Shown: positions 22,125 through 61,847 of the stretch, piece after piece | Numbering within the stretch: the stretch's first letter is position 1 | How the letters are laid out: every line of letters starts with the position of its first letter | NCBI GenBank assembly: GCA_000092065.1 | Contig: CP000598.1 | Reading direction: 5' to 3' (one strand) | From: Ostreococcus lucimarinus | Lineage: Eukaryota | DNA: 64,000 bases | Notes under the pieces: model-generated | The model's database searches: none | Seen by the model: the letters and a program-made list of their open reading frames with translations, nothing else | Told to the model about the DNA's origin: nothing | Program-made: the position numbers and the translations under genes

Positions 22125-22161
22125 TAAGATTTCTCCAGAACGAATCGTGTGAGTGAAGTGG

Positions 22162-23611: not shown

Positions 23612-23688
23612 CGATGGGTCGCGCCCGCCGATATAACGCCGGCGTTTCGGACACGATCTTGAAAACAAGCACTGGTTGACTTGATTGA

Positions 23689-44137: not shown

Positions 44138-45181
44138 ATGGGATCGCGTAAGCAACGCGTCGCCGTTGTCCTGGCGCTCGTTGCCCTCGTCGCTGGAGGT
44201 GGACTAGTGAAACAGCTGGACACGCGCGGGTGTTCGAAAGATACTTCAGCCGCGACGGTAAGTGGCGCTTCGTCATCAGCTCAACCACGCTCGACGGGAG
44301 CTGAATCGCGAGACAATAAACGCGAGACGCCACCTATCGATGCTGTCTCCGCGACGAAGATTGATGATCGAGCTGAAAAGTACGCTATAATCGTCCCTAT
44401 GCACGCCGTCACGCAGCTCGAAGTCATGAAAACCACGTGGAAAATATTTCCACCTTGCGCTGCCGATGCGCGAGCCGCACAAATAATTGATTTGATTTTC
44501 TTATCCGACGTAGACCTCTCGTCGCTCGACGTCACAGGGGGTCACTGCTTTCAGCGAGTGTATCGCCTGCGACCGTTCATCCCGAGCTGCTACAACGTAT
44601 ACGCACAAGCACCACCGTATTGCTTCTTCACGATGATACTTCATCTCGACTTAGACCGTACGTACGACGCCATACTTCAAGTAGAAGCTGATTCCGTGCC
44701 CGTGAAATCCAATTGGTTGGACGCCGCCGTGGAAAACATATTAAAGCCGACATCGGGCGAAGTGTGGATACACGCAGCGAAAAATGAACGCGGTGGAAAC
44801 AATTTCAACGGTAATGGCGCGTACAACTTGCAAAATGACGAATTTCGTCAATTCATAATAGGTTACAGGGAATGGTTTTACACAAAGGCGGTCAACTCTG
44901 GCGACACGGCGTTCGATACAAACATGATTACGTTTGCAAAAGAAGTGGGGTCTTTCGGAAATTTCTCCAACACGCATCTGCGTGCGTCGAAAAGTCTTCG
45001 GAACTGCGATCTCATGTCCCTGACAGCGTGTCGGTCGGCGGTGGATGCGTCCACGTGGGGCGGCGCGACGCCTGAAGCTCTTTTCGTTCACAGTCACGAT
45101 CTGAAAGATCCTTCGCGAGTGAGGAGTCAAATCTTGGTGGAAATGCTTGGTAGAGACGATGGTATACGGCAATTCAAATGA
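44138..45181 (+). CDS. Type II membrane protein of unknown function (glycan-island context)
   Basis: ATG at 44138 gives MGSRKQRVAVVLALVALVAGGGLV (anchor), a Ser/Ala-rich stem, then a globular domain. No family recognised. Confidence 0.5.
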   Translation: MGSRKQRVAVVLALVALVAGGGLVKQLDTRGCSKDTSAATVSGASSSAQPRSTGAESRDNKRETPPIDAVSATKIDDRAEKYAIIVPMHAVTQLEVMKTTWKIFPPCAADARAAQIIDLIFLSDVDLSSLDVTGGHCFQRVYRLRPFIPSCYNVYAQAPPYCFFTMILHLDLDRTYDAILQVEADSVPVKSNWLDAAVENILKPTSGEVWIHAAKNERGGNNFNGNGAYNLQNDEFRQFIIGYREWFYTKAVNSGDTAFDTNMITFAKEVGSFGNFSNTHLRASKSLRNCDLMSLTACRSAVDASTWGGATPEALFVHSHDLKDPSRVRSQILVEMLGRDDGIRQFK

Positions 45182-45697
45182 GTATGCTTGCGACTATTGA
45201 GTTTTCGACATGCTGATGATTTCTTCGTACAGGGCGTCCCACGCCGCCGGAAGCGCTCGCCCGCACTTATCGAGAAGAGTGTACGGACAGCGGACACCCA
45301 TGGCAACATTATTCACGCGTATCGGACGCAGATCTGCATCAAACAAATCTTTATTCAACGCATAACGATTTACTTGCCGCTGCTGCATGGTCACTTCTAA
45401 TTGACCGATGCGTAGGACCTCCTTGAAGTTTGGAGTCTCTGTATGCAAGAACATCGTGTCGCCGCAGTCGCCCAAAACGCCAACTTCCACATAACTCTGC
45501 GCTCTCAAAATCGAGCGGACGTCCTCCTTCGGTCGCGCGATGGTGAAAATGTGAACCTATAAAACCGCGCGTGTGCGTCGTACGACGCCGAAGTGCTAGT
45601 AAATGTTGCCCACTCCGACTGCACCGGTCGTTCTCACGCGTCCATCGACGCCGATACGCGCCGCGTCGCGGTATGCGTTTATCGAAAAAGTCTGAAT

Positions 45698-45976
45698 GAC
45701 CCCCTGAAATTTCAGGGGGTCTATGAGTCACTAGACCCCCTGAAATGTCAGATACTTTCTAGACCGTCTAGAAAGTGTCTGCGAGCTATACCTTATAAAT
45801 TGTGATCAATCGGGCCTAGTGCGTCGATAAGTGATGATGATTACAAGGAGCTATCATTGATTAGTTCATTAATGAGTGTTAACTCGTCAATTAGTCATCC
45901 TAGGTTAACTAGGGGAAGCTATACTTCATATTTTACTCTTCAGATTTCTAACAGTGTCTGACATTTCCAGGGGGTC
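45698..45976. mobile_element. MITE-like element with ~21-bp terminal inverted repeats plus an abutting 24-bp perfect palindrome made of two TIR halves
   Basis: Palindrome gaccccctgaaatttcagggggtc at 45698-45721. Left TIR gaccccctgaaatgtcagata at 45734-45754. Right TIR tgtctgacatttccagggggtc at 45955-45976. GAAT lies on both outer flanks. Internal hairpin at 45749-45781. Confidence 0.6.
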
Positions 45977-46127
45977 GAATCAGTAAGATCCGTGTTCATG
46001 CCTAGAGATTTGAGCGCTCGGTGACAGCGGCAGCTTCCTGAAACGCTCCTCCAGACCCGGACGAGAGCGAGCCGTGAAGCCGTGCGCAAAAGTTCGGCGG
46101 TCGTCGATAGGTCTGGCAACGTCGGTC

Positions 46128-47060
46128 ATGCGTTGGTTGAGGGGACGTGGTGTCAAGGCGATAATGTGCGTCGCCCTTGTCGCAGGTTTCGCCAAGGTAC
46201 CAGATCTGCACGTCAATAAGTATACTATGACACAGACACTGCAAGGCGACGGCTTTGGTTCACAGTTTCAAAATATCACATCTACCGCGGCTGCTCTGCA
46301 CGTCAATAAGTGTACTATGACACAGACACTGCAAGGCGACGGCTTTGGTTCACAGTTTCAAAATATCATATCTACCGCGGTTTTCGCTCAAACCTTGAAC
46401 AAACACTTTTGCGTGACCCCTATCGAAAGCATGGAGCACAACTACGACAATCGCTCAACGTTCCTTCGAGAAGTCAGCGAACTGATTAATTTACCAGTAC
46501 TTTCAAGTCAAGAGGACATGGACATTGAAAAGTGCGAGGTTAAAAAAGGCTGGCTGGATAGCTACATAGTTCAGGAAGCAAATCAGTTGGACGTTCGTAC
46601 AAAATTGGGTAACATTCGAAAGCAGTTCTTGGGTAACAAGCGCTCGTTGTCGGAACTTCGTAAACACGCTGCCGTGCACATCAGGAGGCAGAATTCTTTT
46701 GATAATCGAAACACTGTTTCTCATGATGAAGTCGTGTGCTTTGTGATGAGGGAAATTCTCACTCAAAACAGCAATATTCAGTTTCATGTATTTAGCCAGG
46801 GCGATATTTCGGAGTTTTGGCGCTACCAGAACGATTCAAGAATCGTCCTACGTCTCGACGAACCCATCAACGTGACGTTCACTGAAATGGTTGTCGCCAA
46901 AATTTTGGTCACAGCCACGTCGTCATTTAGCTATGCAGCAGCACTTCTCTCAGAGGGTGAGATATGGGCCCCAAGACCGTTCTGGCACAACTACCCTTCC
47001 TTCTGGAAGACATATCAGCTTTCTCGTACATTGTCTAACTTTGAGACATGCCTACCATGA
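46128..47060 (+). CDS. Fucosyltransferase-like glycosyltransferase (GT11/GT23-like motifs), tentative
   Basis: ATG at 46128 (MRWLRGRGVKAIMCVALVAGFA). GDGFGSQFQNI resembles the G-x-G-N-Q-x-F-Q motif and AAVHIRRQNSFD resembles the HxRRxD motif of alpha-1,2-/NodZ-type fucosyltransferases. Confidence 0.4.
   Translation: MRWLRGRGVKAIMCVALVAGFAKVPDLHVNKYTMTQTLQGDGFGSQFQNITSTAAALHVNKCTMTQTLQGDGFGSQFQNIISTAVFAQTLNKHFCVTPIESMEHNYDNRSTFLREVSELINLPVLSSQEDMDIEKCEVKKGWLDSYIVQEANQLDVRTKLGNIRKQFLGNKRSLSELRKHAAVHIRRQNSFDNRNTVSHDEVVCFVMREILTQNSNIQFHVFSQGDISEFWRYQNDSRIVLRLDEPINVTFTEMVVAKILVTATSSFSYAAALLSEGEIWAPRPFWHNYPSFWKTYQLSRTLSNFETCLP
46206..46380 (+). repeat. In-frame 90-bp tandem duplication (2 units)
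   Basis: ctgcacgtcaataag.atactatgacacagacactgcaaggcgacggctttggttcacagtttcaaaatatca.atctaccgcgg occurs twice (starts 46206 and 46296), encoding LHVNK(Y/C)TMTQTLQGDGFGSQFQNI(T/I)STA. Confidence 0.9.
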
Positions 47061-48372
47061 TACCAGTTTTAATTGTGGGGTGTTAATGCTATCGTTTGTG
47101 AGACACACTCGAGCGCCCTGTAGACTACTCGACTCTATCGCAGTACAAGTTCAGACAACACCAGGCAGAGGGCGTAGGCTAAGCCCCTTTTGCCCGTTCC
47201 CTCTGCCGCACTCTAAGAGCCTACTGCTGTCACAATGGTGCACGCGCTAGTAAGTATATTTTTCCTTCGGGGGTAACCTAGGCGAGTTTTTCTTATTCTA
47301 AAGCTAGTTAGTCAGAGTACTTTTTTATTTTGTGATGGTGACCGAATACAGCGAACACGGTGAAGTCGTCACGTGTGCAAGTCAGTGGCAGTGGCGGGTT
47401 AATGACTTTTCTAGATGAATTCTTTAGTTTGTACAATTCATTGGACATCGATGACCATGTTGATTGGCAGATGTTTAGCACTGCATTACACGAGTACGTG
47501 TTGCTGCTTTGAAAACAATCGGTGGTGACGATTTGTGAGACGAAACAAGGAGCGTATATCTGTGACGTCAGAATACGACGATGCACGGCATAACATCTTG
47601 GAAATTGAGCGCACGTGAACTCTCTGACATAGCACTGCATCGCAAGAATCTCTTAGTCGTCGTTGAGCGTTGTAAAACACCACACGCGCGTCAGCGTACA
47701 TTGTCTGTACAAACTGTCAAATTGTGATTGCGTGAGTACTTTGACGCTCAAGTGAAATCGAAGAAAAAATCCAGGTCCAACATGTTATTCAAAACAACTT
47801 ATTCATGCGTGTAAGTGCATGCAATGGCCGAAAGAGTCAGCGTTGCGGAATCCAGTCAAAGCAAGTTCAGGCTTCCTCAAAACGTTTAACATAATTTTTT
47901 GAATTCTATTCCCGGGTCCATTGGGCGTGAGGGTCGGCGCCACGTTTGCGAAACAGTCAAAATCACGCATGTCGACGAATCATGACTCATCACGCAGTCC
48001 CTCCGCCCCAGCATGATGTTCTGAAATCTGTGACGATCTTTGACGACCGAGTGCGCCGTCGACACGTGCTGCACACCGCTGGAAATCGGTGAACGATGTT
48101 AAAACGAGTGTTGAACGCGTGATCGTCGTTTCACAAGCGCGTGCACGGGTCGTGTGCGATCGCTCGCTCATCAGATGACGCATTTCTGAAAATGGGCGAA
48201 ATAATGTGCGTGTATGTAACCAGTCACTAAAGTGCCTACCTAGGTTACGATTTTGTCAGTTTCGGATCAAAACCGATTGCTGATGGTGATCTTGATTATG
48301 AGCGCGCACAGAGCTGATTCTACCATCATAACGAATCATCCTGACACTTTCTTCACCACGAACTGTCTGTCT

Positions 48373-49581
48373 CTACAACCCCTGGCAGAGCACTTGAGCA
48401 ACATGCCGCATGTGGCGAAATCGCATGTTCAAGAATAAATCGTCGGCGCAATCATGATTCAAACCTCTTGGGAGGTATTCAAAGCCCAACGAGGTGATAA
48501 AGTCGCGAAGTTCATGCTCGCCATGCTGATCAGCGTAGCCGGTAACCACTAGCTCCGGTTGAATCCAGACAACTCGTTTCGATAGCCAATGCCGAGCCCC
48601 TTTGATAATCTCTAAGTCATGGCCCTGTGCGTCAATCTTCAACATGTCGATATATTGGACGCGGCCACCTTGAACACCTAGAGACTCTGACTTTGGAACT
48701 GACACGGACCAAGGCAGAAGGGTAAAGAAATCATGAAGATTCCAAACAGGGACCTGAATTTCATTCTGCACGTCAAACTTGACCGGTTTGTGTAAGCTTG
48801 ATGTCCCTGGATCACCAGCGGTCGCGTAAAATGTCTGCAAGTGTAGAGGAGAAGAGCCCATCGCCACACAAGATAAAAAGTAGCGTTTGCCAACTAAGTC
48901 CAACGGCACACAGAGGTCTCCTGTGGAGCAAGCACAACCCTTCAGTATGTTCTTGCAACTTGTCGGATTAGGCTCAAACGCAAAAACTGTCAGCTGATCC
49001 GGATCGGAAGTGCTGCTGAACCATAAGGCGGAGTTTGGAGCGTTGTAAGACTCACCAATAGATATTTTCACACGCCGCGTATGCCTCGGCAGTGCAATTT
49101 TTCCACGCCGCAGGTGCACTGGAAGTAAGGCACGCGTGGCGTGACGAGTGCGCGAGATATCTTTGATACGTTCGGCCCCTACGAGTGGATCACTTTTTGG
49201 TTCTTCACAGCTACTCCCAAGTGAGTCGCTGTACGATTCAGTCACAGGAAGTCCGCGTGCTGACGCAAACGCAAGGAGTACGAGCGAACCCAGCGAACCG
49301 AGCAAACAGCCCGCAACCAACCTAAATTTCATACTGAATTTCATTCTGACAGGGACTCGCACGTTCTCGTGTCGCTTAAAGCCCGTATTTTGCTCCATCT
49401 CTTCGCGGTCTAAATACTGTATAAAGTGGGTGTGTAGTACGCTCTTTTCCGTTCTTCGGCCTGGGTGTTCAGTATGCTGTTTCCGGTCTTCAGTTTCTTC
49501 ATCTCGACGGCTTCGGGGCGACCACTTTGGCCGGCGACGAGTTTGCCCTGTACCATAGGACATCGTGGCCGCACACAGCAT
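48373..49581 (-). CDS. FkbM-family methyltransferase, second member
   Basis: ATG at 49581 verified; an alternative ATG at 49344 precedes the anchor MKFSMKFRLVAGCLLGSLGSLVLLAFA. VFAFEPNP and MLKIDAQGHDLEIIKGA are FkbM motifs. Confidence 0.7.
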   Translation of the reverse strand: MLCAATMSYGTGQTRRRPKWSPRSRRDEETEDRKQHTEHPGRRTEKSVLHTHFIQYLDREEMEQNTGFKRHENVRVPVRMKFSMKFRLVAGCLLGSLGSLVLLAFASARGLPVTESYSDSLGSSCEEPKSDPLVGAERIKDISRTRHATRALLPVHLRRGKIALPRHTRRVKISIGESYNAPNSALWFSSTSDPDQLTVFAFEPNPTSCKNILKGCACSTGDLCVPLDLVGKRYFLSCVAMGSSPLHLQTFYATAGDPGTSSLHKPVKFDVQNEIQVPVWNLHDFFTLLPWSVSVPKSESLGVQGGRVQYIDMLKIDAQGHDLEIIKGARHWLSKRVVWIQPELVVTGYADQHGEHELRDFITSLGFEYLPRGLNHDCADDLFLNMRFRHMRHVAQVLCQGL

Positions 49582-49788
49582 TTCGAGGCCTATATATTAT
49601 AATATCTCTTGTTTTTGTCAGAGGCCTATTTCTCAGAAACATCGTGTCCTTATGCGAAAATGAGGTGGATTAAGAGATGCGAAATTCGAAAATAGAATCG
49701 GCGATTTATTCCGATAAGGGCCGTTTTTTCCCACATCGGAATGAATCGGGCCTTTGTATTCCGAAAAGATACTTGTCAAAATAGCGCG

Positions 49789-49806
49789 ACTCGTCACGTG
49801 ACGAGT
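49789..49806. promoter_or_regulatory. Perfect 18-bp palindrome centred on a G-box (CACGTG) in a divergent intergenic region
   Basis: actcgtcacgtgacgagt lies between the 5' ends of 48373..49581 (-) and 50081..52366 (+). Several tattccg/cggaat motifs are nearby. Confidence 0.5.
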
Positions 49807-50080
49807 TAATTTTAGGGGGTCCTATTCCGACAACGCTATTCCGGCTATCTCTTTTGAAAAACTAGCGACGCGAAATGAAGACGCGCAGTCGCCCCACTAG
49901 TGCGCGTCACTTGTTGAACTCGTTCTTCACCGAACGGGGTTTTAAAGACGTACATGTGTCCTCAGGGAACCGCATGCGGATTGTCGTCGATCTCCTTTGA
50001 CCTCGGACGCTGAGGCCTCGGACCTTAAAGTCCCCGCTTCCGACGTAAAAAGTTCTGTCAGTGCGAGTTTTAGCCACGCT

Positions 50081-52366
50081 ATGAACTGGAGACTGAGTAT
50101 GTCGGAGTCGAAGTCGTTGTTGATTCTTCTCGTTGCATATGCATTTTGCAGCTCGACTCTCTTGATTCTCAATAAAGTTGCGTTGCAGACCATAAACTCG
50201 GGTACATTTTTGCTCCTACTACAGTGCGTGTTCACTTGTATGGCTCTTGGGACTCTCGACCATTTTGGATTTACTTCGGCTATTTCGCCTCTGGAGGCAG
50301 CCGAGCGCGAGCGATTTACTGTGGTGGTTGCCCTGTTCGTGACAACTCTATTTGCCAACATGAAATGTCTACAACTCGCAAACGTCGATACCGTTATCTG
50401 TATCCGCATGACGTGTCCTTTGTTAGTGAGTTTGCTCGATTATCTCTTTCTTGGAAGGGAGCTGCCCACTCGCACTTCAACCCTAGCATTGGTTGCAACT
50501 TGTGTGAGCTTTGCCTCATTTTTACTCGTTGAACAGAACTCTTCATGGATCACAATATTTTGGCTATCATTTTGGTACTGTGCTATGGTATTTGAGACCG
50601 TATTCGTCAAGTTTGTTGTCAGTGACTCGTCGCTTTCAACAGCGGCACAGTCCTTCTATCAAAATTTACTTGCGATCCCGGTGTTGACAGTGATATGGTT
50701 TTCCACAGAGATCCCAACTAGTGTTTTTGAACAAATTTCTTTGTCTACTTCGGAATTCTCCTTGGTTCTGTCCACTTGTATTCTCGGGTTAGGGATGAGC
50801 TACTTGTCGTTTGCTGTGCGTGAACGGGTATCGGCGACGAGCTTTTCAATGCTTGGTAATACGTGCAAGTTGATAACAATTCTAACGAATTATTTACTAT
50901 GGGAAAAACATGCTACAGGTGTTGGAACTTTTGCAGTCCTTTTCTGTCTTGCATCCAGTACCTTTTATCGCCAGGCGCCGTTGCGACATCCTATTAATCA
51001 TAAGGCGCAGTCATGGTTTCCCGCCCCTTGTACCATCAAGGCTACTGAAGAAGTCAATATGAGGATCATTGCAGCTGGGTTACTCGGTATCCTGGCGCTT
51101 GGCTTGCACTTTACTTCATATTTTCGTAGTTCTGTGAACTGGAACCTTGAAGAACAAACAGGTGTTTCTGGCGTTTCAGGAAAATTATTTACTGGTGCAC
51201 AAGTGCGGCAGTATTTTCCTTCGCATGACGATCGTCCTTCCAAGAAAAATCGTTCGACCTCTTCTCCCTTCTTTTCTGATCATATGTCTTGCGAAAATTG
51301 GGCCGTTTGTACCACCATCTTCGTCGAGTCAGACGCAGTGCGTGACGTTTGTAAAATACTACCGTCGTACTGCCTACTTGTCGTCGCAGATAAGAAAGGT
51401 CCACTAGAATACTTCATCGACGGGAACTGCACGTTCGCATACTTATCTGTAGAGCAACAAGAAGACATGTTAACAGACTCAGACTTCATCACAGAAACGC
51501 CGTGGAATCACTTTGGGCGGAAAAATCTAGGGTACTTGTTTGCAATAGCGAATGGTGCGAAGATGATATGGGATTTTGATGATGACAATCAAATAATCAG
51601 TTCAAAATTTTTTCTCGATCAGGCAGGAGAGCACCAACTAGTTACAGTCGAACCAATTACTTCGATGCTGAATCCTTACCCCTTACTTGGTGCCGAAAAG
51701 TTTTCCTGGCCTCGTGGTTTTCCACTCGACGGTATAAAAAACGAGGCATCACAACCAAGCGTTGACGATCTACGAGTTTCTGTCGTCGACTTCGAACGTG
51801 TCGGAGTACTGCAATCACTGGCGAATAATGATCCAGATGTTGATGCTATTTACAGGCTTCAGAGAGACCTGCCTTTCAGCTTCAAAGGCTGGTCGAGTCC
51901 TGCAAGTGTTTTCGTTTTGCCAGGCGCTTCTTTTGCTCCCTGGAATGCTCAAGCCACCCTTTTCAGGATGCGGGATGCACTCTGGGTTTCGTATTTACCT
52001 ATCTCTATTCATGGTAGGGTATCTGATATATGGAGATCATACATAGCGCAGCGACTTTTGCGGAACGTGTGTATTCACATCGCCTTCGCTGTGGAGCCAC
52101 TTGTTGTGCAACATCGAAATCAGCATTCCTACCTTGCCGATTTCGATGCGGAGCAAGATTTGTATTACAAATCAGGTAAACTGATCGAGCTTCTTGGAGA
52201 GTGGACCGCAAAATCTTCCTTTCCTCAAGAGCAGATTGTGGAGCTCTTCAGGATTCTGTATGAACATGATTATGTTGGAATCAAAGATGTTCGAATGATC
52301 GAACTCTGGATTTCAGAGCTCAACCGAGCGGGATACATCTTTCCAAAGAGCTGCAGTGTCCGCTAG
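50081..52366 (+). CDS. Single ORF fusing a TPT/GDP-sugar-transporter-like domain to a STELLO/DUF288-like glycosyltransferase domain
   Basis: ATG at 50081 (the track start at 49997 is TTG). The N-terminal half has ~9-10 helices (LLILLVAYAFCSSTLLILNKVAL, CIRMTCPLLVSLLDYLFLGRELP). The C-terminal half has NWAVCTTIF..LLVVADKKGP..NHFGRKNLGYLFAIANGAKMIWDFDDDN. An internal ATG at 51059 precedes a second anchor (MRIIAAGLLGILALGLHF). Confidence 0.7.
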   Translation: MNWRLSMSESKSLLILLVAYAFCSSTLLILNKVALQTINSGTFLLLLQCVFTCMALGTLDHFGFTSAISPLEAAERERFTVVVALFVTTLFANMKCLQLANVDTVICIRMTCPLLVSLLDYLFLGRELPTRTSTLALVATCVSFASFLLVEQNSSWITIFWLSFWYCAMVFETVFVKFVVSDSSLSTAAQSFYQNLLAIPVLTVIWFSTEIPTSVFEQISLSTSEFSLVLSTCILGLGMSYLSFAVRERVSATSFSMLGNTCKLITILTNYLLWEKHATGVGTFAVLFCLASSTFYRQAPLRHPINHKAQSWFPAPCTIKATEEVNMRIIAAGLLGILALGLHFTSYFRSSVNWNLEEQTGVSGVSGKLFTGAQVRQYFPSHDDRPSKKNRSTSSPFFSDHMSCENWAVCTTIFVESDAVRDVCKILPSYCLLVVADKKGPLEYFIDGNCTFAYLSVEQQEDMLTDSDFITETPWNHFGRKNLGYLFAIANGAKMIWDFDDDNQIISSKFFLDQAGEHQLVTVEPITSMLNPYPLLGAEKFSWPRGFPLDGIKNEASQPSVDDLRVSVVDFERVGVLQSLANNDPDVDAIYRLQRDLPFSFKGWSSPASVFVLPGASFAPWNAQATLFRMRDALWVSYLPISIHGRVSDIWRSYIAQRLLRNVCIHIAFAVEPLVVQHRNQHSYLADFDAEQDLYYKSGKLIELLGEWTAKSSFPQEQIVELFRILYEHDYVGIKDVRMIELWISELNRAGYIFPKSCSVR

Positions 52367-52743
52367 CAAGGTTTAGGATCGGTAAAAATAAAATTACACG
52401 CGTGTCGGTATTCGTTTCGTCGCTTCCGTCGGTTGCGCGCCACCGCTGGGCATTTGAAGTTAGCACTTCTCGATCGCCACGCGCGCGTTGTGGCGTCGTC
52501 GCGACTTATTAGCACTTCCGACGGCGCGCACGTATTAGGGACGTGGAGTGGAATACATACGTAGTTTTCTAATAACGAAAGAAGGAATTCGACTCACAAA
52601 TAAAACAAGTCATGAACACAAACACTTGGACGCGATGCGATGAACCGCAACGACCGTGGACGCCGTGTGGCTCACGCGTCGTATATAGCACTTCGCTTCT
52701 CTCAACGACGACAATGAGAACCGCGGGAGCATCTACTTGTTTT

Positions 52744-53988
52744 TCACTCTGGAAACAAGGTACGCGTTTTTCTTCTCCAGTGCTTCAAGATATCGGCAAT
52801 TGTGTTTGTGATGTTTGGGTCAGGAATCCACCCCGTCAGCTCTCGTATTTTCCTATTATCTGACAAAAGTATCTTCTCATCGTAAAGCCGCTCACGTGCA
52901 CCATCAAACAGCGTCGTGATGTCTGGTCTTGTTGACAGTGAAATCGCTGTGTCTAGGATGTCCTTCATTGAAAGTGCGATGCCACTACCGATGTTGTACG
53001 ACTCTCCAGGCTCTCCAAGGTCTACAAGTTTCGTTACCACTCGTGCAGAATCGCGGAGGTCAGTTATGTCCCTTTTTGTGGTAATGCGCCCATGTCTCAC
53101 CACTGGGCTTTGCAATCCGAGCTCGATCATTGCTATCTGCCGACAAAACTCTTGAGGTGCGAGACTCTCAGTCCCACCCGCTGAAACTTGGATAAAAAAT
53201 CGAGCGGTGACGACGTGCATGCCGTGGCTGTGCACATATTGCTGAGCAAGTAGGTCTGCTGCAACCTTGCTTACTCCATAAGGAGACACGGGCGCCAATG
53301 GTGCTTCTTCAGGTATGGCCCCTTCCCACGTATCAGCAGTTTTTCCATATTCTGTGCTTGAACCAGCCAGCAGAAAGCGCGTTTTGTTGGAGAGTCCTGC
53401 AAATCGCACTGCTTCTAGCATGTTGAAGGTGCCTTTGATGTTGGTATCTAAAGTCAGCTCAGCGGAGTCATATGAAACCCCGTTGATTGCTTGTGCAGCA
53501 AAATGGAAAATAACTGTTGGGCAGATTTCTGCGACCACCTGTTTGACACGAGTTCCGTCCAGAATGTCTCCACGAACGAGCTGTATGTTGTTCAATTCGC
53601 CTGCCAAATTTGACAGGTCAGATCGGTATCGCACAAGACCGTGAACCTCATACTTTCCTTCCTGTATCAACTGTTTCACAACGTAGCTGCCTATCATTCC
53701 AGACACACCTGTCACGAGAGCTCTTGGTCTTGCAGATAGAGCACTCAAGCAAGGCGTGTAATCTTTACTCTTTGCATTAAGATTTGTAGCAAAAGAGGAT
53801 TCCTCACGGTACATATGAGTTTTTGAAGGTTGAACATTGTATCGTGAAGTAACCGGGCTTGAAAGTCCTGATTTGAATTGCACAGCCTGATATGACGGAT
53901 GTAACACAACAGCTGCTAAAACAAACGATGAAACAGCCAATATTCGTGCAGTCTTTCCCAGCGTGTGCTTGAAGCGACTGTCGCGCAT
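52744..53988 (-). CDS. Membrane-anchored NAD-dependent sugar epimerase/dehydratase (extended SDR)
   Basis: ATG verified. Anchor ILAVSSFVLAAVVLH. ALVTGVSGMIGSYVV (GxxGxxG). SPYGVSKVAADLL (YxxxK). GSSTEYG. Confidence 0.8.
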   Translation of the reverse strand: MRDSRFKHTLGKTARILAVSSFVLAAVVLHPSYQAVQFKSGLSSPVTSRYNVQPSKTHMYREESSFATNLNAKSKDYTPCLSALSARPRALVTGVSGMIGSYVVKQLIQEGKYEVHGLVRYRSDLSNLAGELNNIQLVRGDILDGTRVKQVVAEICPTVIFHFAAQAINGVSYDSAELTLDTNIKGTFNMLEAVRFAGLSNKTRFLLAGSSTEYGKTADTWEGAIPEEAPLAPVSPYGVSKVAADLLAQQYVHSHGMHVVTARFFIQVSAGGTESLAPQEFCRQIAMIELGLQSPVVRHGRITTKRDITDLRDSARVVTKLVDLGEPGESYNIGSGIALSMKDILDTAISLSTRPDITTLFDGARERLYDEKILLSDNRKIRELTGWIPDPNITNTIADILKHWRRKTRTLFPE

Positions 53989-54210
53989 AGATAGCTGTCC
54001 TTAGCAAGTGATGACTATGTTATACTTCGAAGGTGTGCGGGACAAAATTCGCGACTGCCCTTGAGCGGCACGGAATGAGTTCAACAAGTGAGGCGCGCTG
54101 GCAGGGCGACGGCGCGCGTATACGTGTCGCGTCTCTTCATTTGCCATCATTTTTTATGTACAGTACAAGGGGGCTAGTAGTACTTTAGTAAAGTAATTGT
54201 ACTAATTGTA

Positions 54211-54254
54211 GTCATGATTGGTCGTTGTGCAGCATTGAGTCATGATTCGTCGTT
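54211..54254 (+). promoter_or_regulatory. Two copies of the motif GTCATGATT(G/C)GTCGTT, also found upstream of genes at 15066 and 18177
   Basis: 54211-54226 and 54239-54254. Related copies at 14820-14835 (gtcatgattggtcgtt) and 17956-17971 (gtcgtgactcgtcgtt). All lie 206-259 bp upstream of an ATG. Confidence 0.4.
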
Positions 54255-54469
54255 TTACCCCTCCCAAACGTTGGCGGTATTTAGCCAGATCCGAATGTAC
54301 ACAGTCAGACGGTCGCTCTTGGGTCATGACTTGTCAAATGGGCTCAAAAACTCGCCCCGGCCGTGATCACCACAATGCCCTGACGCTCACTTTTTCGCTC
54401 AAAACGCTATCCTATGCCAAACGATGCCCGCACAACGGAGGACGCAGTCAAACGACTACAAACACTAGC

Positions 54470-55663
54470 ATGGCGTCCGTAGCGTCCGTTATCGCCGCCA
54501 AGCGCGCTGGCTTCATCGGTATGGGTCGTCTGGGATTGTGTACCGCCCTCAAGTTTGAGCAAGCGGGTTGGGATGTCTGTGGGTCTGACGTCTTTCCGTC
54601 GTACGTTGAAAGTATCAACGACAAGAGTCTTCGAAGCAAAGAGCCCGGAGTCGAAGAGGCTTTGCGAAAGAGCACGCGTTTGCGAGCGACTCTGAATCTC
54701 CTTGATGTCCTAGAGCATGCCGATATCGTTTTCATTCTCGTCGCGACTCCAACCAGCGCGGGCGAAGAGGCCTACGACACGACAACTCTGAGCAGGGTCT
54801 TGAGTGATATCGCTAAATTAAGGCCGACAAACAAACACATCGTGATTTGCTGCACAGTGTTGCCTGGTTACATCTCGAACATCGGTAGTTACCTTATCGA
54901 AAGTTGCACTGGATGTAGTTTGAGTTACAATCCAGAGTTCATCGCCCAGGGTGAGATCATGAAGGGCCTCAGTGAACCCGACGTGGTGCTCATAGGGGAA
55001 GGAAGCGAAGAAGCCGGTGATATTCTACAGTTTTTATACGAGACCGCGACGTCCAATGAGCCTCGGATCTGTCGCATGTCTCCGCAAAGCGCTGAGATAA
55101 TGAAACTAAGCGTAAACTGCTTTGTTACCACGAAGATCAGCTTCGCCAATATGATTGGTGACATTGCTGACGCGACGCCTGGTGCAGACAAATTCGACAT
55201 CCTTAGAGCCGTTGGTCAGGATACACGTGTCGGCCACCGGTGCATCCTTCCAGGTTACGGCTTCGGAGGTCCTTGCTTTCCACGTGATAATAGAGCACTC
55301 GGAATGTACGCACGCAAGGTTGGAATCACTCCTTCAATTTGCGACGCGACGGATGAATACAACCGACTTCACGCGGACGCCATGGTAAAGGCTCTTTTGG
55401 AACAAAAACTAGAGCATTATACCATCAGTGATGTTGCTTACAAGCCACAGTGTCCGGTGGATATTATTGAAGAGTCGCAACCACTCGAAGTGGCCAAGAG
55501 ACTTGTTCAAGCAGGCAAGCGAGTCGTTATACGCGATCGACCCGCCATCATCGAGCTCGTACGCCGCGCTTACGGGCGTATGTTTACCTACGGAGCATAC
55601 AAAGTACCTAACGAAGAACCAAATACTTCTGCTGGCAACCCGTTATCAAGCTACGCGAGGTAA
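54470..55663 (+). CDS. Nucleotide-sugar 6-dehydrogenase (UDP-glucose / UDP-ManNAc dehydrogenase family)
   Basis: ATG at 54470 verified (MASVASVIAAKRAGFIGMGRLG, Rossmann GxGxxG). NPEFIAQG. Catalytic-Cys motif GFGGPCFPRDN. Confidence 0.85.
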   Translation: MASVASVIAAKRAGFIGMGRLGLCTALKFEQAGWDVCGSDVFPSYVESINDKSLRSKEPGVEEALRKSTRLRATLNLLDVLEHADIVFILVATPTSAGEEAYDTTTLSRVLSDIAKLRPTNKHIVICCTVLPGYISNIGSYLIESCTGCSLSYNPEFIAQGEIMKGLSEPDVVLIGEGSEEAGDILQFLYETATSNEPRICRMSPQSAEIMKLSVNCFVTTKISFANMIGDIADATPGADKFDILRAVGQDTRVGHRCILPGYGFGGPCFPRDNRALGMYARKVGITPSICDATDEYNRLHADAMVKALLEQKLEHYTISDVAYKPQCPVDIIEESQPLEVAKRLVQAGKRVVIRDRPAIIELVRRAYGRMFTYGAYKVPNEEPNTSAGNPLSSYAR

Positions 55664-56440
55664 GCTCAACCATGTTCACGTTTCAACGCTGTCACCAACT
55701 CACCGCGTGTCTGATGCGCTGGTGGCCAGATCTTTTGATTTAATATCTATCCATGATATAATCACAGATCTTTCACATCTTAGCCACCGTGCTCGTCGTT
55801 TCCTCGGATCTCGCACGAAGTTGAGATAAATTTCATGTATAAATTACTCACCCTAATATCATACTGCATACACTTTAAGTGCGTCGATAAAGAGCTTTGA
55901 GGTCGTGACAACGGCTGGAATCTACGAACCTGTTTCACGCATCAAAGTCCACCATGCTTTGAACCCTGCGGTTTGTGGCGCGTGATGAGCAAGTAGCAAG
56001 TGCCACCCAAACCTGCGTTCTATGGTGCGCACGAGAGCATCCGGCATAGCCGCGAACCACGGCTCTTTTTTGTATGTGTACGATGTATATGATTTGTATG
56101 TGTATGATTTGTTCGGGCGTTTTTTCCTTCGACTAATTTTGTCATCATCATCGAAACGGAACGTTTAATTCGAGCTCTCCACATTTTAGGGCTAATTTTG
56201 GGAAAAGTGTGACTGTCCATGTATAGACACAACACCAAACTCGATTAAAAAGCTCCTCAAAAAATGTGCGGGAATTGTCTCGAGTGTGTGGCGCTTGCGA
56301 TTGTGGCACGCGTTGAAGCGACTCGCGGTACGGCACGTACGTAGTCTTGAACACGAATATATGTGAATACGATTCACGTTCGAACGCTCTTGGAGTTGCG
56401 CTTCGACATGCTACTGAAAGTAGCTTGCGATTCCGGTACT

Positions 56441-57961
56441 ATGGCTCGCCGAACGGTCATTCTGTTTGCGGTTGTGGCCGTGTTGCTTTGGAGACTGTTC
56501 TTGTTCGATATTGGTGACAGCAGATTTAAAAGTATCACACCACATCCATCACCGGAGCAAAGACGACAACAAAATCACCGAGCAAGATTTTTAGAGCTCA
56601 CACATAACGAAACCTACAAAACCGCAAATGTCGAAGAGAGGAACGATGAACATTTCAAGATGGAACGATATGAAGAATCACCTGCAAGATTACAAGCGTC
56701 AGCTAATTTGGATACACAGAGCACCCGCGTCTTGGTTTTAAGTTGGCATGGTGGTACCGCGAAAGACACAGCGATGCAACTTCATAACGCTGGAGTTCGT
56801 CGCGAAAATATCGTGTGTGGAGGCATTATTTGGTACGAGAAAGTCCTCGATTCTGCTCCTTGCGTAAGAGATCATGCATTATCTGAGGCTTTGAATCGAT
56901 TGACACAGCGTGTAAGAGGTTTTCCCATGGCTATCGATCCAGCAGACGAGAAATGGTTGGATGATTTCGCAGCTGAGGCTAGCGAGATGCTATCTACGTT
57001 CCATGTGCTCTGGGCGGACTTTCCTACCGCCCTTTGTCTTCTATTAAACAAGATTGCCCCACATAAATTGATAGTACGCACAACGCATCGTTTTGATCAC
57101 CAGGTGGCTCATTCGAAGATAAATCACACGTCATTTGTACGTAAAAGCCTCATGCGCGTTCTACGCGAGGCGCCAATACTTCTTGCTGGGAGCGAGTACG
57201 ATCGGGCATACATGAAGTTCTACACATGTCGTGAACCTGAACGTCTATTCATAACATGGCCAACACAGTATTTGGAGAGTTTGGGCGCATCGCGTACACT
57301 TACGAACGAGTCATGCTTCATCTTGTGGGGGGGGTCGAACAACGAAGGTAGTTCAAGCATATCGATTACATTTGATAGAATACGAGTCCTCGGGCGCACT
57401 ATGGAGTCACAAGTTCCCATGAAAAGTCGCCCAACGAGTTTTGCTCACGCTTCGGAATTTGCAACAGAGCAAGCCGTAGTATATTTCCCATACAGTATGC
57501 CGAGTTCCGCATTTCATGAACTTTACGCGAGTGGTGTCCCCCTTTTCGTGCCATCGTTGACTTTCATGCTCGATGAGTTTTCAAAAAACCGTGGCTATCC
57601 TCACAAAGTAGCTGGTAATGTCCCTTGTGCTTCACCATCTTTTTACGAAAACGCTGAGGCAGTGGAGTTCTGCTGTCTTGACGATACTGGGGTATGTCAT
57701 GATCCAAATTCATGCGATCCTGAAGCGCTGAAACAATGGGTATCATTAGGTGACCTTTACACCACCCCGCATGTGACGTATTTCGACAGTGCCGAGCATG
57801 CTGTGGAACTCATGAGCAACTGGATGAAGCATCCAGACCAACGGGATCGAACGATCGAGGACATGGAGTCACACAACGTTGCTAACCTTCGATGGAATGC
57901 TCGTGTCGTTCAAGCCGCAATTCGTCATGTCAAACAAAGCAGCGCGCTTGAACTGGATTGA
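56441..57961 (+). CDS. Type II membrane protein, putative GT-B-fold glycosyltransferase
   Basis: ATG at 56441 (MARRTVILFAVVAVLLWRLFLF). The C-terminal AVVYFPYSMPSSAFHELYASGVPLFVPS resembles the GT1/GT4 E-x7-E region. The assignment is weak. Confidence 0.45.
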   Translation: MARRTVILFAVVAVLLWRLFLFDIGDSRFKSITPHPSPEQRRQQNHRARFLELTHNETYKTANVEERNDEHFKMERYEESPARLQASANLDTQSTRVLVLSWHGGTAKDTAMQLHNAGVRRENIVCGGIIWYEKVLDSAPCVRDHALSEALNRLTQRVRGFPMAIDPADEKWLDDFAAEASEMLSTFHVLWADFPTALCLLLNKIAPHKLIVRTTHRFDHQVAHSKINHTSFVRKSLMRVLREAPILLAGSEYDRAYMKFYTCREPERLFITWPTQYLESLGASRTLTNESCFILWGGSNNEGSSSISITFDRIRVLGRTMESQVPMKSRPTSFAHASEFATEQAVVYFPYSMPSSAFHELYASGVPLFVPSLTFMLDEFSKNRGYPHKVAGNVPCASPSFYENAEAVEFCCLDDTGVCHDPNSCDPEALKQWVSLGDLYTTPHVTYFDSAEHAVELMSNWMKHPDQRDRTIEDMESHNVANLRWNARVVQAAIRHVKQSSALELD

Positions 57962-58094
57962 AAATGCTGGTCGATACAAAGAAGCTGTGGGGGCGATACT
58001 TTGGACATCGTATTCAATATCTTACTTGGCGTACCTCGCCATGTAGAGTCTCACGCCTAGCGTATGTACGCGAAGTGAAAATAGATTTGAGTTT

Positions 58095-58766
58095 TCATTT
58101 AGTGTAACTCGATAGCGGGTTTTCCATGGTGGTGTTCGGGATGGGCGCTACTCCCCCTGCCGTAGTATCGCATATTTCGTAATCGAACAACTGCCCGTAC
58201 GTTCCTCGCACTAAGTGAACAATCGCCACCCGGTCGAAAACTGTCACTTTCTTCCCCCGTCGCACGAGTCGTTTCGCGATTTCGAGCAGCTGGGACTCTT
58301 CGATGATATCCACAGGACAATTCGATTCATATGCGACGTAGGATACCTTACACCTATCGAGATCTAGCCAGGTAACACCGTGCCTCAAATCATCAAGTGT
58401 TTGTTCTCGGGGTTCAAGTCGCTAATATCACTCAAAAAACCGACTGAGCGCGCTTGTGTCGTACGCTTGATCTCCAGAGTCAGTGGGCGTGGCGACGAGG
58501 ATGAAGACCATATCGACGCGATCGATCACTTCACGCAGCTTTAAAGTTGCGCGCAGATGTTTGCTCGATCGAAGCGCTTCCTCGACTCTTGGCTCAGTCA
58601 AACGAAGCGTGATTTCGTTGATGCTGTCCACGTGCGCCGGAAAGACATCCGAACCAACGATATCCCAATCAGCTTGTTCACACTTGAGAGCCGTACATAG
58701 TCCGAGTCGGCCCAGACCGACGAATCTGGCGCGCGTTGTTTGCAAGATCGATCGAGTGGTAGCCAT
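58095..58766 (-). pseudogene. Internally deleted copy of the 54470..55663 dehydrogenase, inverted orientation
   Basis: N-terminal part: MATTRSILQTTRARFVGLGRLGLCTALKCEQADWDIVGSDVFP..ILVATPTDSGDQAYDTSALSR, then a stop. C-terminal part (58095-58388): VAYESNCPVDIIEESQLLEIAKRLV..NPLSSYTK. The central ~240 codons, including the catalytic Cys, are absent. Confidence 0.8.
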
Positions 58767-59010
58767 CTTCGCTCTGCGACGTTGCAACGTCAGAGACGGC
58801 GACTGGCCCAAGATCACTCCACTCTCTTAAAGCATGTCTCTTTCTGGACTTTATTATCCCTGGTACTTTGTTAGGTATATGTCGTAGGAACGCAACCGCG
58901 GACCACAGCCTCGGTGTTGACTCACCACTGCTTTCCTCTGCGTCGAAACTACCGCAACAACGCTCTTGACACGCGCACTAACATTAAGTACACCGGTCGT
59001 GAGCGACGCC

Positions 59011-59600
59011 ATGCGCGAGTCGAATGAGTTCGTGAAAACGTTTTACGATGATCGCCCTTGTAACATTCGGCTCGAAGGAATACTTTGAAGAAGTGACGCG
59101 GCGTAAATATTTCGTCGAGAACCACACTTTGGCATTCGCAAGTCTCGACGCGTACGAAAACAATCTGTTCTCGAGGTTGGTTGCGGTATAGGGACCGCGA
59201 CACAAAGTTTTACTGAAGCTGGCGCGGTTTACACAGGCATCGACGTTTCCTTGCGAAGTGTAGAACTCGCTGAGAAGCGACTCAAACTGTTCAAACTCAA
59301 TGGTGAGGTGCGCGTTGCAGATATACAGACCGATGAATTCATGCACGACCATTTTGATCCTCTTTTTAGTTTCGGAGTTCTGCATCACATCGCCGATGTA
59401 CAACCCGCCGTGAAGGATATTTCATGACTCTCAAACCGGGAGGCGAGTGCAAGCTGATGATGTACGCAAATAATTCTTGGAAAAAAACTTGGAAAAAGAC
59501 TTTCGTCGACTCGGGATTGGACCAATTTGAACCACAATCTGGAGTTCCAATCACTCACACTTACAAAGCCAGTGTCGTGCAATCATCAAGCTCGTTTGTG
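59011..59600 (+). pseudogene. Class I SAM-dependent methyltransferase (type 11-like) with several frameshifts and a truncated 3' end
   Basis: The pieces lie in four frames. In order: MRESNEFVKTFYDDRP; SKEYFEEVTRRKYFVENHTLAFASLDAYENN; SVLEVGCGIGTATQSF..SFGVLHHIADVQPAVKDIS; FMTLKPGGECKLMMYANNSWKK. It runs into the 3' end of the convergent dehydratase gene. Confidence 0.6.
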
Positions 59601-60559
59601 AAATCAAACTCGAGCGATCGTCGTCGACCGTCCGCGCTCGCCGAAGGGTGCGGGCGCAACGCAGGTGAGAATTCGCCCCAGTAGGCGCTCAAGTCGTTAT
59701 TCGAGTACCAACGCACGGTTTCCGCGAGACCGACGTCCCAGGACTTTTCTTGTCGCCATCCGAGCGCTAAAAGCTTTGAGCAATCGATGAAATATCTTCG
59801 GTCGTTGAAGGCTCGATCGCTCACGTGCTCGATGGTCGTTTCCGGGTCGCGATCGAGGAGCTTACAGACATCCCGAGCGACGGACAAGATCGTCCGCTCT
59901 TCGCGCGAGCCGATGTTATAAATCTGCGCCGTCGTCCCGCGGTGGAGAATGACATCGAACGCCGAAGACGCATCGTCAACGTGCATGTACGAACGCGTCG
60001 CGTCGCCGTCGCCGTGTATCGAAATCTTTTCCCCGCGTTTCGCGAGGATTGAAAACTTTGGAATCGCCTTCTCTGGATACTGATTCGGCCCATACACGTT
60101 GTTTCCGCGAGTGATGATGTACGGTAGTCCGTACGAGCGTCCATACGCCATGACGAGCATCTCCGCGCCCGCCTTGGTCGCGGCGTACGGGTTGGTGGGC
60201 GTCAGGAGCGACGCGTGCTCGGTGTTTGAATCCATGAGATTTTCCCCGTATACCTCATCCGTGGACACGTGCAGGAATCGTCGAATTTCGGTCTTCTGCG
60301 CTCGCACGCACGCCTCGAGTAACGCGTGCGTGCCCTCGATGTTATTCTTCGTGAACTCGTACGAGTTCCCGAAAGAGTTGTCCACGTGACTCTGCGCGGC
60401 GAAGTGCATGACGGTGTCGATGCGCTCGCTTTGCAAGACGTAACTCAATAAATCGAACGAACGCACATCGCCCTTGACGAACCGCACGTTCGCGCATTCT
60501 TTCGCGCGCTCGAGATTTTTCAAGCTCGAGCAATAGTCGAGCTTGTCCAGGATGACAAT
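59561..60559 (-). CDS. UDP/dTDP-glucose 4,6-dehydratase (RHM/RfbB-like), exon 2
   Basis: IVILDKLDYCSSLKNL..HFAAQSHVDNSF..VSTDEVYGE..PTNPYAATKAGAEMLV..GDGDATRSYMHVDD. The frame is continuous with the track ORF 59561..60523. Confidence 0.9.
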   Translation of the reverse strand: MVILDKLDYCSSLKNLERAKECANVRFVKGDVRSFDLLSYVLQSERIDTVMHFAAQSHVDNSFGNSYEFTKNNIEGTHALLEACVRAQKTEIRRFLHVSTDEVYGENLMDSNTEHASLLTPTNPYAATKAGAEMLVMAYGRSYGLPYIITRGNNVYGPNQYPEKAIPKFSILAKRGEKISIHGDGDATRSYMHVDDASSAFDVILHRGTTAQIYNIGSREERTILSVARDVCKLLDRDPETTIEHVSDRAFNDRRYFIDCSKLLALGWRQEKSWDVGLAETVRWYSNNDLSAYWGEFSPALRPHPSASADGRRRSLEFDFTNELDDCTTLAL

Positions 60560-60666
60560 CTGTCGAGCGCGACGAGTCGTTCGCGGTCAGTCGTTCGCGC
60601 GAGAGATGGGTGCAAAGTCCGTGCGTTGTTCGACGCACGCGCACGGGGTCGAAATCGTGCGCGCAC
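60560..60666 (-). other. Spliceosomal intron (107 nt, GTGCGC...CAG)
   Basis: Exon 1 ends ..HPEYT at 60667. The donor gt is at 60666-60665 and the acceptor cag at 60562-60560. Splicing gives HPEYT|IVILDKLDYC, the expected contiguous Rossmann-fold sequence. Confidence 0.85.
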
Positions 60667-60750
60667 CGTGTACTCGGGATGCCTCGACGCGAGGCGCTCG
60701 GCGACGTGCGAGCCGATGAAGCCGGCGCCACCGGTGAGAAGGATGCGCAT
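60667..60750 (-). CDS. UDP/dTDP-glucose 4,6-dehydratase, exon 1
   Basis: ATG at 60750; MRILLTGGAGFIGSHVAERLASRHPEYT (GxxGxxG). Confidence 0.85.
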
Positions 60751-61242
60751 GCGGGCGGACGGGCGTCTCGGTCGAGCGCGTCTAGATTTTCGCAGATTAT
60801 CTCGACGACATGCTCGCGAATACCGCGCGCGCCTCGAGGGCGTTCGCGAGTGCTGCGCGCGATGTCCACGCGACGCCGCGCCTTTTGACGCCACTCGCAC
60901 CGGCGCGCAGAAAACGAACGGCGGTTCGGCGGGGCGCGAAAGTGATTACTCCTTCGGGGGTAACCTAGGCGAGCTTCCCGTATTCATGTACAAATTACTC
61001 ACCCATATATCATACCTGGTATTGATCCGACACGCGTCAGAGATAACGGGGAGAATAAAACCACAGAAATTCATGTACACGCGGCACTTCGACAAAGTCT
61101 TTCGATCGTTAAAGCACTGGTGACCCCTCTACCCTCCACGTTCTGTCAGAGGCTAGTTCTGTGAGTCTCTCAGTCTGTATTCTTTTACACCGAAGGTCGC
61201 TCCGAGGACGAAACTATCTTGTGTTTATTTTTGGATCTGGTC

Positions 61243-61825
61243 TACTGCATACACTTTAAGTGCGCCGATAAAGAGCTTTGACTTCGTGACAACGGCTGTC
61301 ATCTACGAACCTGTTTCACGCATCAAAGTCCACCATGCTTTGAATCCTGTGGCTTGTGGCACGTGATGAGCAAGTGCCACCCGAACCTGCGTTCTATGGT
61401 GCGCACGAGAGCGTCCGCACGAGAGCATCCGGCATGGCCGCGAACCACGGCTCTTTTCTGGATGAAGCATCCAGACCAACGGGATCGAACGATCGAGGAC
61501 ATGGAGTCACACAACGTCGCTAACCTTCGATGGAATGTTCGTGTCGTTCAAGCCGCAATTCGTCACGTCAAACAAAGCAGCGCGCTTGAACTGGATTGAA
61601 AATGCTGGTCGATACAAAGAAGCTGTGGGGACGATACTTTGGACATCGTATTCAATATCTTACTTAGCGTACCTCGCCGTGTAGAGTCTCACGCCTAGCG
61701 TACGTACGCGAAGTGAAAATAGATTTGAGTTTTCATTTAGTGTAACTCGATAGCGGGTTTCCCATGGTGGTGTTCGGGATGGGCGCTACTCCCCCTGCCG
61801 TAGCATCGCATATTTCGTAATCGAA
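61243..61825 (+). pseudogene. Deletion derivative of 55866-58187: upstream region joined directly to the last 45 codons of the 56441..57961 gene plus its 3' flank
   Basis: 61243-61458 matches 55866-56066. 61459-61825 matches 57823-58187 (MKHPDQRDRTIEDMESHNVANLRWN.RVVQAAIRH VKQSSALELD). About 1.75 kb is missing at the junction ggctcttttc|tggatgaag. Confidence 0.85.
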
Positions 61826-61847
61826 AAGTTAACGTGCCCATCGAGTA

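Follow-up and report, generated by a model that had tools for sequence, protein, structure and literature searches.

An apparent MITE on chromosome 18 of Ostreococcus lucimarinus may be a palindromic repeat split by a solo-LTR-like insertion

The small outlier chromosome (SOC) of the Mamiellales is linked to virus resistance and rearranges fast, and to our knowledge the sequence features behind this rearrangement are poorly defined. Among known repeats, MITEs are short, AT-rich, non-coding and bounded by terminal inverted repeats (TIRs), while foldback elements of the Drosophila FB type and unstable palindromes, such as the AT-rich palindromic repeats at human translocation breakpoints, have near-perfect arms with almost no loop. 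Solo LTRs carry 5'-TG...CA-3' termini and a target-site duplication of 4-6 bp. In Ostreococcus, a TRIM derived from retrostreo2 lies on chromosome 19 of O. tauri, the SOC of that species (PMC5082852), and a 1,001-bp "spacer" with 225-bp inverted repeats has been proposed to be a non-autonomous transposable element in O. mediterraneus (PMC13390643). Chromoanagenesis-like rearrangement, with NHEJ-type junctions, has been described on the O. mediterraneus SOC as well (PMC13390643).

The structure analysed here, in a 64-kb window that comprises the whole stretch of DNA examined (64,000 nt), shares features with each of these systems. Like MITEs, it is short, AT-rich, non-coding and bounded by terminal inverted repeats, and its arms are common to different interiors, in the window and in a related scaffold (L001); unlike MITEs, it is associated with no target-site duplication, insertion polymorphism or matching transposase, its copy number is apparently very low, and its "TIRs" make better sense as palindrome arms that an insertion has separated. 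With foldback elements and unstable palindromes it shares near-perfect and almost loopless arms, a centre-deleted derivative beside a longer copy, and copy and structural-variant boundaries at the base of a hairpin, but its palindromes are much shorter (24 and 65 nt) and lack the tandem subrepeats and 9-bp duplication of foldback elements, and any role of theirs in breakage is putative. A 174-nt insert within the structure resembles solo LTRs and TRIMs in its TG...CA ends, in the 5-6-bp duplication seen at two independent sites and in its location on an Ostreococcus outlier chromosome, whereas paired LTRs, PBS/PPT and gag-pol were not found here and any terminal inverted repeat is limited to TG..AG. 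The O. mediterraneus "spacer", on or near the SOC of a sister species, is likewise low-copy, ORF-less and bounded by inverted repeats; it has much longer arms and a different size, and is likened to the present structure by description rather than by sequence.

The account that we favour, with slightly more than even confidence, is that two adjacent members of a palindromic family lie side by side, that one of them was split by a solo-LTR-like insertion of 174 nt, and that a fragment of the insert family later served as filler in a mosaic junction. The whole feature is more likely a composite of ordinary repeat debris in an intergenic spacer. Its novelty is modest, since it adds new members of known repeat kinds to a chromosome whose wealth of repeats and rearrangements was already known, but it provides a base-level O. 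lucimarinus example of a palindromic family, an insertion with target duplication and a mosaic junction at a 7.76-kb variable segment.

Genomic setting and palindromic arms

The window lies on chromosome 18 of O. lucimarinus CCE9901, which we take to be the SOC of this species. The ORF at 46128-47060 is 100% identical to XP_001422303.1 of the same strain. A domain search of the window ORFs, compared with the gene content described for the Mamiellales SOC (Yau et al. 2016, PMC5082852), returned a typical repertoire: glycosyltransferases (GT17, STELLO-like and fucosyltransferase-like), FkbM methyltransferases, a nucleotide-sugar transporter, sugar epimerases and dehydratases, a UDP-glucose dehydrogenase, a DUF285 repeat protein of 2,607 aa and a C5 DNA methyltransferase with CXXC and Tudor domains. 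The palindromic structure and its insert occupy an intergenic spacer of ~950 bp, between an upstream stop codon at 45181 and a downstream ATG at 46128, and end ~140 nt upstream of this ATG, which belongs to the fucosyltransferase-like gene. Both genes flanking the spacer are on the same strand and encode type-II membrane glycosyltransferase-like proteins. The fucosyltransferase-like gene itself carries a 90-nt tandem duplication at 46205-46380 (98% identity) that adds a 30-aa repeat and is found in every strain contig.

The palindrome, the 21-bp inverted ends bounding 243 bp and the internal hairpin that had been proposed at this locus are all present where they had been placed, and all are far above chance. 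The 9-mer GACCCCCTG occurs five times in the 64-kb window, against 0.24 expected, with four of the five occurrences within 280 nt, and a 13-mer pattern allowing up to two mismatches has five matches in the window, against 0.73 expected. Folding of the 296-nt unit yields a z-score of -6.4. The arms follow the consensus CTGAWT(C)-GACCCCCTG(G)AAATKTCAGAYAC and the family pattern CTGAWTC-GACCCCCTG-GAAATKTCAGACA, with CTGAWTCGACCCCCTGGAAATKTCAGACA as the family arm sequence and GACCCCCTGGAAAT as its GG variant; the loose motif CTGAWT(C)GACCCCCTG matches the window only at 45692 and at 45968-45983.

Read along the plus strand, the structure opens with an 8-nt flank resembling an arm extension (45690-45697, GTCTGAAT), followed by a perfect palindrome of 24 nt (45698-45721, GACCCCCTGAAA|TTTCAGGGGGTC) with 12-nt arms that are 100% complementary and have no spacer between them. 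Because this palindrome amounts to the outermost 12 nt of both arms of the longer palindrome described below, it reads as a centre-deleted copy of that 65-nt palindrome; we found nothing in support of the suggestion that it is an excision footprint. A 12-nt spacer (45722-45733, plus strand, TATGAGTCACTA) separates the two palindromes. An alternative 20-bp hairpin, with the central 8 nt of this spacer as its loop, pairs 45704-45723 with 45732-45751 (95% complementary) and is the one used in the minimum-free-energy fold. The second palindrome begins with a left arm of 31 nt (45734-45764, GACCCCCTGAAATGTCAGATACTTTCTAGAC), the first 21 nt of which had been taken as the left TIR. Its right arm, also read on the plus strand, is in two parts: an inner part at 45766-45781 (GTCTAGAAAGTGTCTG), and an outer part at 45953-45976 (AGTGTCTGACATTTCCAGGGGGTC), which had been taken as the right TIR. 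The inverted ends, GACCCCCTGAAATGTCAGATACT (45734-45756) and AGTGTCTGACATTTCCAGGGGGTC (45953-45976), pair over 21-24 nt with one indel and one mismatch, and the arms of the internal hairpin (45749-45764 and 45766-45781) are 94% complementary.

Alignment to a 43-nt inverted repeat in L001 revealed that the conserved right arm runs ~15 nt beyond 45976, to ~45991 (GAATCAGTAAGATCCG). This extension (45977-45991, plus strand, GAATCAGTAAGATCC(G)) is homologous to the outermost 15 nt of the inverted repeats in L001, and it bears directly on the tetranucleotide GAAT, which had been noted on both sides of the unit. GAAT is indeed present at 45694-45697, as the last four bases of the left flank, and at 45977-45980, within the right extension, but the corresponding bases read CTGATTC|GACCCCC in L001 and GTCTGAAT|GACCCCC in both the window and L001. 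Since GAAT is thus conserved family sequence, it is not a target-site duplication.

An 8-nt repeat and the 174-nt insert

The feature that most alters the interpretation of this locus had previously gone unnoticed. The 8-nt sequence AGTGTCTG is present twice, at 45774-45781, where it forms the 3' end of the inner part of the right arm, and at 45953-45960, where it begins the outer part. A single stretch of the left arm, 45749-45756 (CAGATACT), is complementary to both copies. Deletion of 45782-45952 merges the "TIRs" and the "internal hairpin" into one near-perfect palindrome of 65 nt, in which the restored right arm GTCTAGAAAGTGTCTGACATTTCCAGGGGGTC, of 32 nt, faces the 31-nt left arm across a 1-nt loop with one indel and one mismatch. 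The rebuilt region of 124 nt folds into two adjacent hairpins (-42.2 kcal/mol, z = -10.55). Both palindromes show the long arms and minimal loop of foldback elements (12+12 nt without a loop, and 31+32 nt with a 1-nt loop), with no flanking duplication found and no empty site known for them. The uninterrupted junction that a split palindrome implies is GTCTAGAAAGTGTCTGACATTTCC; no uninterrupted 65-nt palindrome was found in the sequences compared.

The interrupting sequence measures 171 nt when counted between the 8-nt repeats (45782-45952), and 174 nt when read as a unit with TG...CA termini on the plus strand (45780-45953, TGCGAGCTATACC...TTTCTAACA). Its ends are TGCGAGC...TCTAACA, and it is flanked by a duplication of 5-6 bp (GTGTC or GTGTCT). 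The insert has no ORF and no terminal inverted repeat, and neither the insert nor the element as a whole has an Rfam match. An RNA gene was also considered as an explanation and set aside: at E <=1, Rfam returned only a sub-threshold miRNA match that lies outside the element, and no tRNA was detected in the window.

A second copy of the insert, in contig L002 (19641-19753), has the same ends (TGCGAGCTATA to ATCTAACA) and internal deletions. TTAAG(T) stands on either side of it, and it has neither TIRs nor the GACCCCCTG motif. On both sides, homology between L002 and the window stops at the edges of the 8-nt repeats of the window. The two copies are consistently defined as a unit of ~174 nt with TG...CA ends and a 5-bp duplication (GTGTC in the window, TTAAG in L002) or, alternatively, as a G...CA unit with a 6-bp duplication. 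Their termini and the length of the duplicated sequence, GTGTC(T) in the window and TTAAG(T) in L002, are those of solo LTRs, an assignment drawn from the two sites at which complete copies were seen (window and L002). In neither the window nor the 142 loci compared did we detect a full-length LTR element, paired LTRs, PBS/PPT or a gag-pol partner.

As judged from sequence, the 8-nt overlap is what an insertion at a staggered cut would leave, and the TG...CA ends with their 5-6-bp duplication would fit a solo LTR or another integrase-type insertion. The mobile piece is thus likely to be the interior insert, the "TIRs" being the arms of a pre-existing palindrome. In the order of events that we propose, two adjacent foldback-like family members, a centre-deleted copy of 24 nt and a copy of 65 nt with 31/32-nt arms, would have been in place before a unit of 171-174 nt (TGCGAGC...TCTAACA) entered the right arm of the 65-nt palindrome by what was presumably an integrase-type or similar reaction. 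This insertion would have duplicated 5-8 nt of its target (GTGTC within AGTGTCTG) and displaced the outer 24 nt of the arm by 180 nt, giving rise to an apparent 243-bp MITE with 21-bp TIRs and an "internal hairpin". The case carries a caution for annotation, in that an insertion into a palindrome yields a convincing false MITE. Because a templated insertion that re-primed a few bases upstream could also make an 8-nt repeat, the event in the window alone cannot separate transposition from template switching.

Related loci and the transposon reading

The palindromic family recurs in related environmental Ostreococcus contigs, L001 and L136 and probably L057. L001 is a Tara scaffold that is ~96% identical to the window in two genes and carries a relative of the structure at a different place (10517-11178), with 43-nt arms (GGACTKTGCKGATTCGACCCCCTGGAAATTTCAGACAGTTTCC) that are 95% identical and enclose an unrelated interior of 577 nt. 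In this scaffold a mini-palindrome is abutted by the GTCTGAAT 8-mer, read there as ATTCAGAC (...CAGGGGGTCATTCAGAC), and the ends of the element have no direct repeat. L136 is a more distant relative, with a diverged arm (GTCTGATTCATCCCTCTGAAAATTTCAGAC) in an intergenic spacer and a diverged form of the flank (GTCTGATTC); this arm is the sole relative among the sugar-transporter contigs L136-L142. A scan of metagenomes with an arm pattern that does not match the GG variant (GACCCCCTGGAAAT) returned 116 stretches, among which only L022 represents the same locus and nearly all others are chance matches. Matches in L026, L070, L076, L084 and L089 extend by only 4-5 nt and were treated as chance. 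The probable exception is L057, which presents a 25/26-nt match and further copies of the motif and is probably a member of the family. Members occur in non-homologous contexts in related genomes, with no target-site duplications.

Two further similarities were recorded in these contigs. L057 contains, beside its GACCCCCTG cluster, an element of ~1 kb (1223-2219) with inverted repeats of ~170 nt (106 nt at 84% identity plus flanking pieces) that is reminiscent of the inverted-repeat "spacer" element of O. mediterraneus. Window positions 54293-54365, upstream of the UDP-glucose dehydrogenase gene, are ~80% identical over ~60-75 nt to a subterminal part of the L001 element interior (11041-11115), and contain a GGGGGTC-(N)-TGAGTCAC-like module, as at 45715-45731.

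The original prediction of a MITE-like element is upheld in part. Its inverted termini are those of a repeat family, shared with L001, but the 243-bp unit that they bound is probably not the mobile unit, given the split palindrome and the occurrence of the insert without TIRs in L002. A genuine MITE would be a non-autonomous DNA transposon moving as a whole, either 45734-45976 or, with the arm extensions, 45692-45991; the copies of the interior alone, in L002 and at 61.9 kb, would then be TIR-less deletion derivatives, and the 24-nt palindrome an internally deleted sibling. We regard this as unlikely, even though the ends are real and conserved (21-24-nt arms here, 43-nt arms at 95% in L001) and are shared with L001 around a different interior, and the unit is small, AT-rich and non-coding. 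Copies of the motif also cluster in both orientations near one end, like subterminal transposase-binding sites, and low-copy non-autonomous elements with inverted repeats have been reported in O. mediterraneus (PMC13390643). Against these points, the proposed target-site duplication has no counterpart in L001, where the ends of the element show no direct repeat, and GAAT belongs to the family sequence. The search for other copies with the same termini had a mixed outcome: the arms in L001 have the same sequence, and L136 a diverged arm, but there is one TIR-bearing locus in the 64-kb window, and the metagenome scan, in which exact arm variants were tested, recovered only the orthologous locus. 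This reading also leaves unexplained the 8-nt overlap, and the fact that homology with L002 stops at the edges of the TIRs with a flanking repeat of its own.

Comparison among strains points in the same direction. L022, from a strain that is 98% identical and carries the whole structure, and L134 both span it without any change of site or orientation, and L135, which starts inside the element, agrees with the window over the right-hand 77 nt that it covers. The element is thus fixed in L022 and L134, and no empty site or insertion polymorphism was seen among the three strain contigs. An invertible segment was likewise rejected, since the orientation is the same in every strain contig covering the element.

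Nor was an autonomous partner identified in the window or the contigs compared with it. No window ORF of at least 200 aa has a transposase, reverse transcriptase or integrase domain, and the pogo-like element present in related contigs does not carry the motif. This pogo/Tc5-like transposase was rejected as a partner because the termini of its transposon (GTGTAGCCCCGCG... and ...CACGTGTAC) are unrelated and lack GACCCCCTG; the transposon is absent from the window. It is a DDE transposon (HTH_Tnp_Tc5 + DDE_1) found in L022 (10534-11862), where it starts just past the point at which L022 diverges from the window (62383), and in L124-L133; copies with 99.5% identity or more occupy at least five different gene contexts among marine metagenome contigs, which suggests recent activity in Ostreococcus populations. 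A phage or virus origin of the structure was also discarded: there was no match in the phage collection searched, and the arm and core patterns gave one chance match in viral contigs, in a phage coding region.

The mosaic junction and the 7.76-kb variable segment

The partial inverted copy that had been reported near 61.9 kb is borne out: when 61847-61929 is aligned to the reverse complement of 45780-45865, the two are 88% identical over 86 columns, with a core of 46 nt at 96%. It is a minus-strand fragment of the insert, 83 nt in length, without TIRs and without a duplication of its own. Its location at the boundary of a structural variant also holds, as L022 lacks window 54167-61928. L022 is collinear with the window over 44357-54166, continues with 13 unmatched bases and then resumes at window position 61929 (...TACAGTAC-TTGTACCTAGGGA-TTTCGAAAAT...), so that a strain-variable segment of 7.76 kb (54167-61928) is present in the window and absent from this 98%-identical strain. 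The right edge of the segment is the exact end of the fragment copy.

Self-comparison of the window revealed that the fragment is the last of six tiles in a mosaic of abutting short copies (60950-61929). From left to right, 60950-60985 corresponds to 47263-47298, 60983-61015 to 55832-55864, 61243-61464 to 55862-56076, 61458-61825 to 57820-58187 (97.6%), 61824-61845 to the reverse complement of 62123-62144 (22/22) and 61847-61929 to the reverse complement of 45780-45865 (88%). Its left limit falls where the window ceases to be homologous to L001 (60947), and its right limit is the point from which L022 is again homologous to the window (61929). At its last junctions, tiles overlap by 2 nt (61824-61825) or are separated by 1 nt (61846), as is usual for template switching or end-joining. 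Such a mosaic fits serial template switching or the end-joining of fragments rather than transposition. The fragment is only 88% identical to the copy at 45.8 kb, while neighbouring tiles are 97.6-100% identical to their sources, so it was probably copied from another, unseen member of the family. These observations do not bear out the implication of the element in the rearrangement, because the copy at 61.9 kb is one tile among several and looks like a by-product, not a cause. In the order of events set out above, a diverged 83-nt fragment of the insert was incorporated later, in inverted orientation, as the final tile at 60950-61929, and serial template switching or end-joining of fragments would be the simplest explanation of the mosaic.

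Two candidate features of this region were rejected. A 7/8 flanking repeat for the 61.9-kb copy (ATTTCGTA/ATTTCGAA) is spurious, its left copy lying inside the duplicate of 57820-58187, and a presumed element fragment at the start of the 7.76-kb segment had a local alignment score below the shuffled mean. Inverted repeats were recorded at both ends of the region. The perfect 22-nt repeat at 61824-61845 and 62123-62144 encloses 277 nt, including the fragment copy; its left arm is specific to the window and its right arm common to L022. Repeats of 44 nt (84%) at 49882-49925 and 54073-54116 flank a two-gene block of 4.1 kb, and between the right arm of this pair and the left breakpoint of the 7.76-kb segment, where L135 ends, there are 50 nt.

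The mosaic raises the possibility that no transposition took place at all, and that the entire structure at 45.8 kb is the scar of template switching or fold-back priming with templated insertion, the same process as in the mosaic. Template switching typically generates quasi-palindromes and short return duplications, the tiles of the mosaic are short copies, direct and inverted, that abut with overlaps of 0-2 nt, and a perfect inverted copy of 22 nt adjoins the fragment. Chromoanagenesis-like rearrangement and NHEJ junctions on the O. mediterraneus SOC (PMC13390643) are also in keeping with this explanation. We nonetheless consider it quite improbable: the insert is bounded by the same ends at two unrelated sites, both of which show a flanking direct repeat, and the palindrome arms occur in non-homologous contexts of other genomes, which argues for a family and not for a single local accident.

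A more speculative proposal gives the palindromes an active part. The source boundary of the fragment (45780/45781) marks one end of the TG...CA unit and also the base of an arm of the palindrome, and either could explain the coincidence; a boundary at the arm base is what stalling of replication at a hairpin would predict. Palindromes of the GACCCCCTG type might therefore be protein-recognised or hairpin signals in SOC spacers that stall replication or attract cleavage, seeding mosaics, cassette shuffling and presence-absence variants, a proposal that we would call a long shot. If it were true, the boundary of the 61.9-kb fragment at the arm base would be the footprint of a hairpin-seeded rearrangement, and palindromes acting as recurrent breakpoints would provide a testable handle on the hypervariability of this chromosome, for which the present basis is one boundary coincidence.

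Least probable of all, in our estimation, is that the palindromes are functional cis-elements, either sites for a dimeric protein or recombination/inversion sites around a promoter-bearing segment of the fucosyltransferase-like gene: the core CTGAAATTTCAG is palindromic (candidate duplex GACCCCCTGAAATTTCAGGGGGTC), the motif is retained in lineages with sugar-transporter genes that are ~78-96% identical (protein or DNA), the unit lies ~140 nt upstream of ATG 46128, and its 20-nt inverted arms, with an 8-nt spacer between them, resemble recombinase sites, if only in their layout, but no inversion variant was seen (L022 and L134 have the same orientation and L135 agrees at the right end), there is one cluster in 64 kb, and no recombinase gene is found nearby among the window ORFs.

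Other repeats and length differences in the window were noted in the course of these comparisons. At 52458, the window is missing a non-coding segment of ~200 nt that is present in L022 (8120-8323) and L135 (~6577-6777), from two environmental strains, in the spacer between the STELLO-like and epimerase genes; neither inverted repeats nor a target duplication are evident in it. The repeat-rich half of the window contains a second, unrelated family of palindromes, with a 120-nt member at 14663-14782 (60-nt arms, 88%) and a shorter related one at 17830-17889, which share CCCGCGCATA...ACTGTAC. A direct duplication of ~4 kb (10191-14371 and 22125-26319, ~11.94 kb apart), with stretches that are 93-100% identical, includes an ORF of 841/843 aa without a Pfam match. 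A dispersed repeat of 69 nt is present at 1236-1304, 14938-15006, 18046-18114 and 19795-19863, and its terminal sequence, GCTAGGGTTTAGC, includes TTTAGGG, the telomere unit of plant type.
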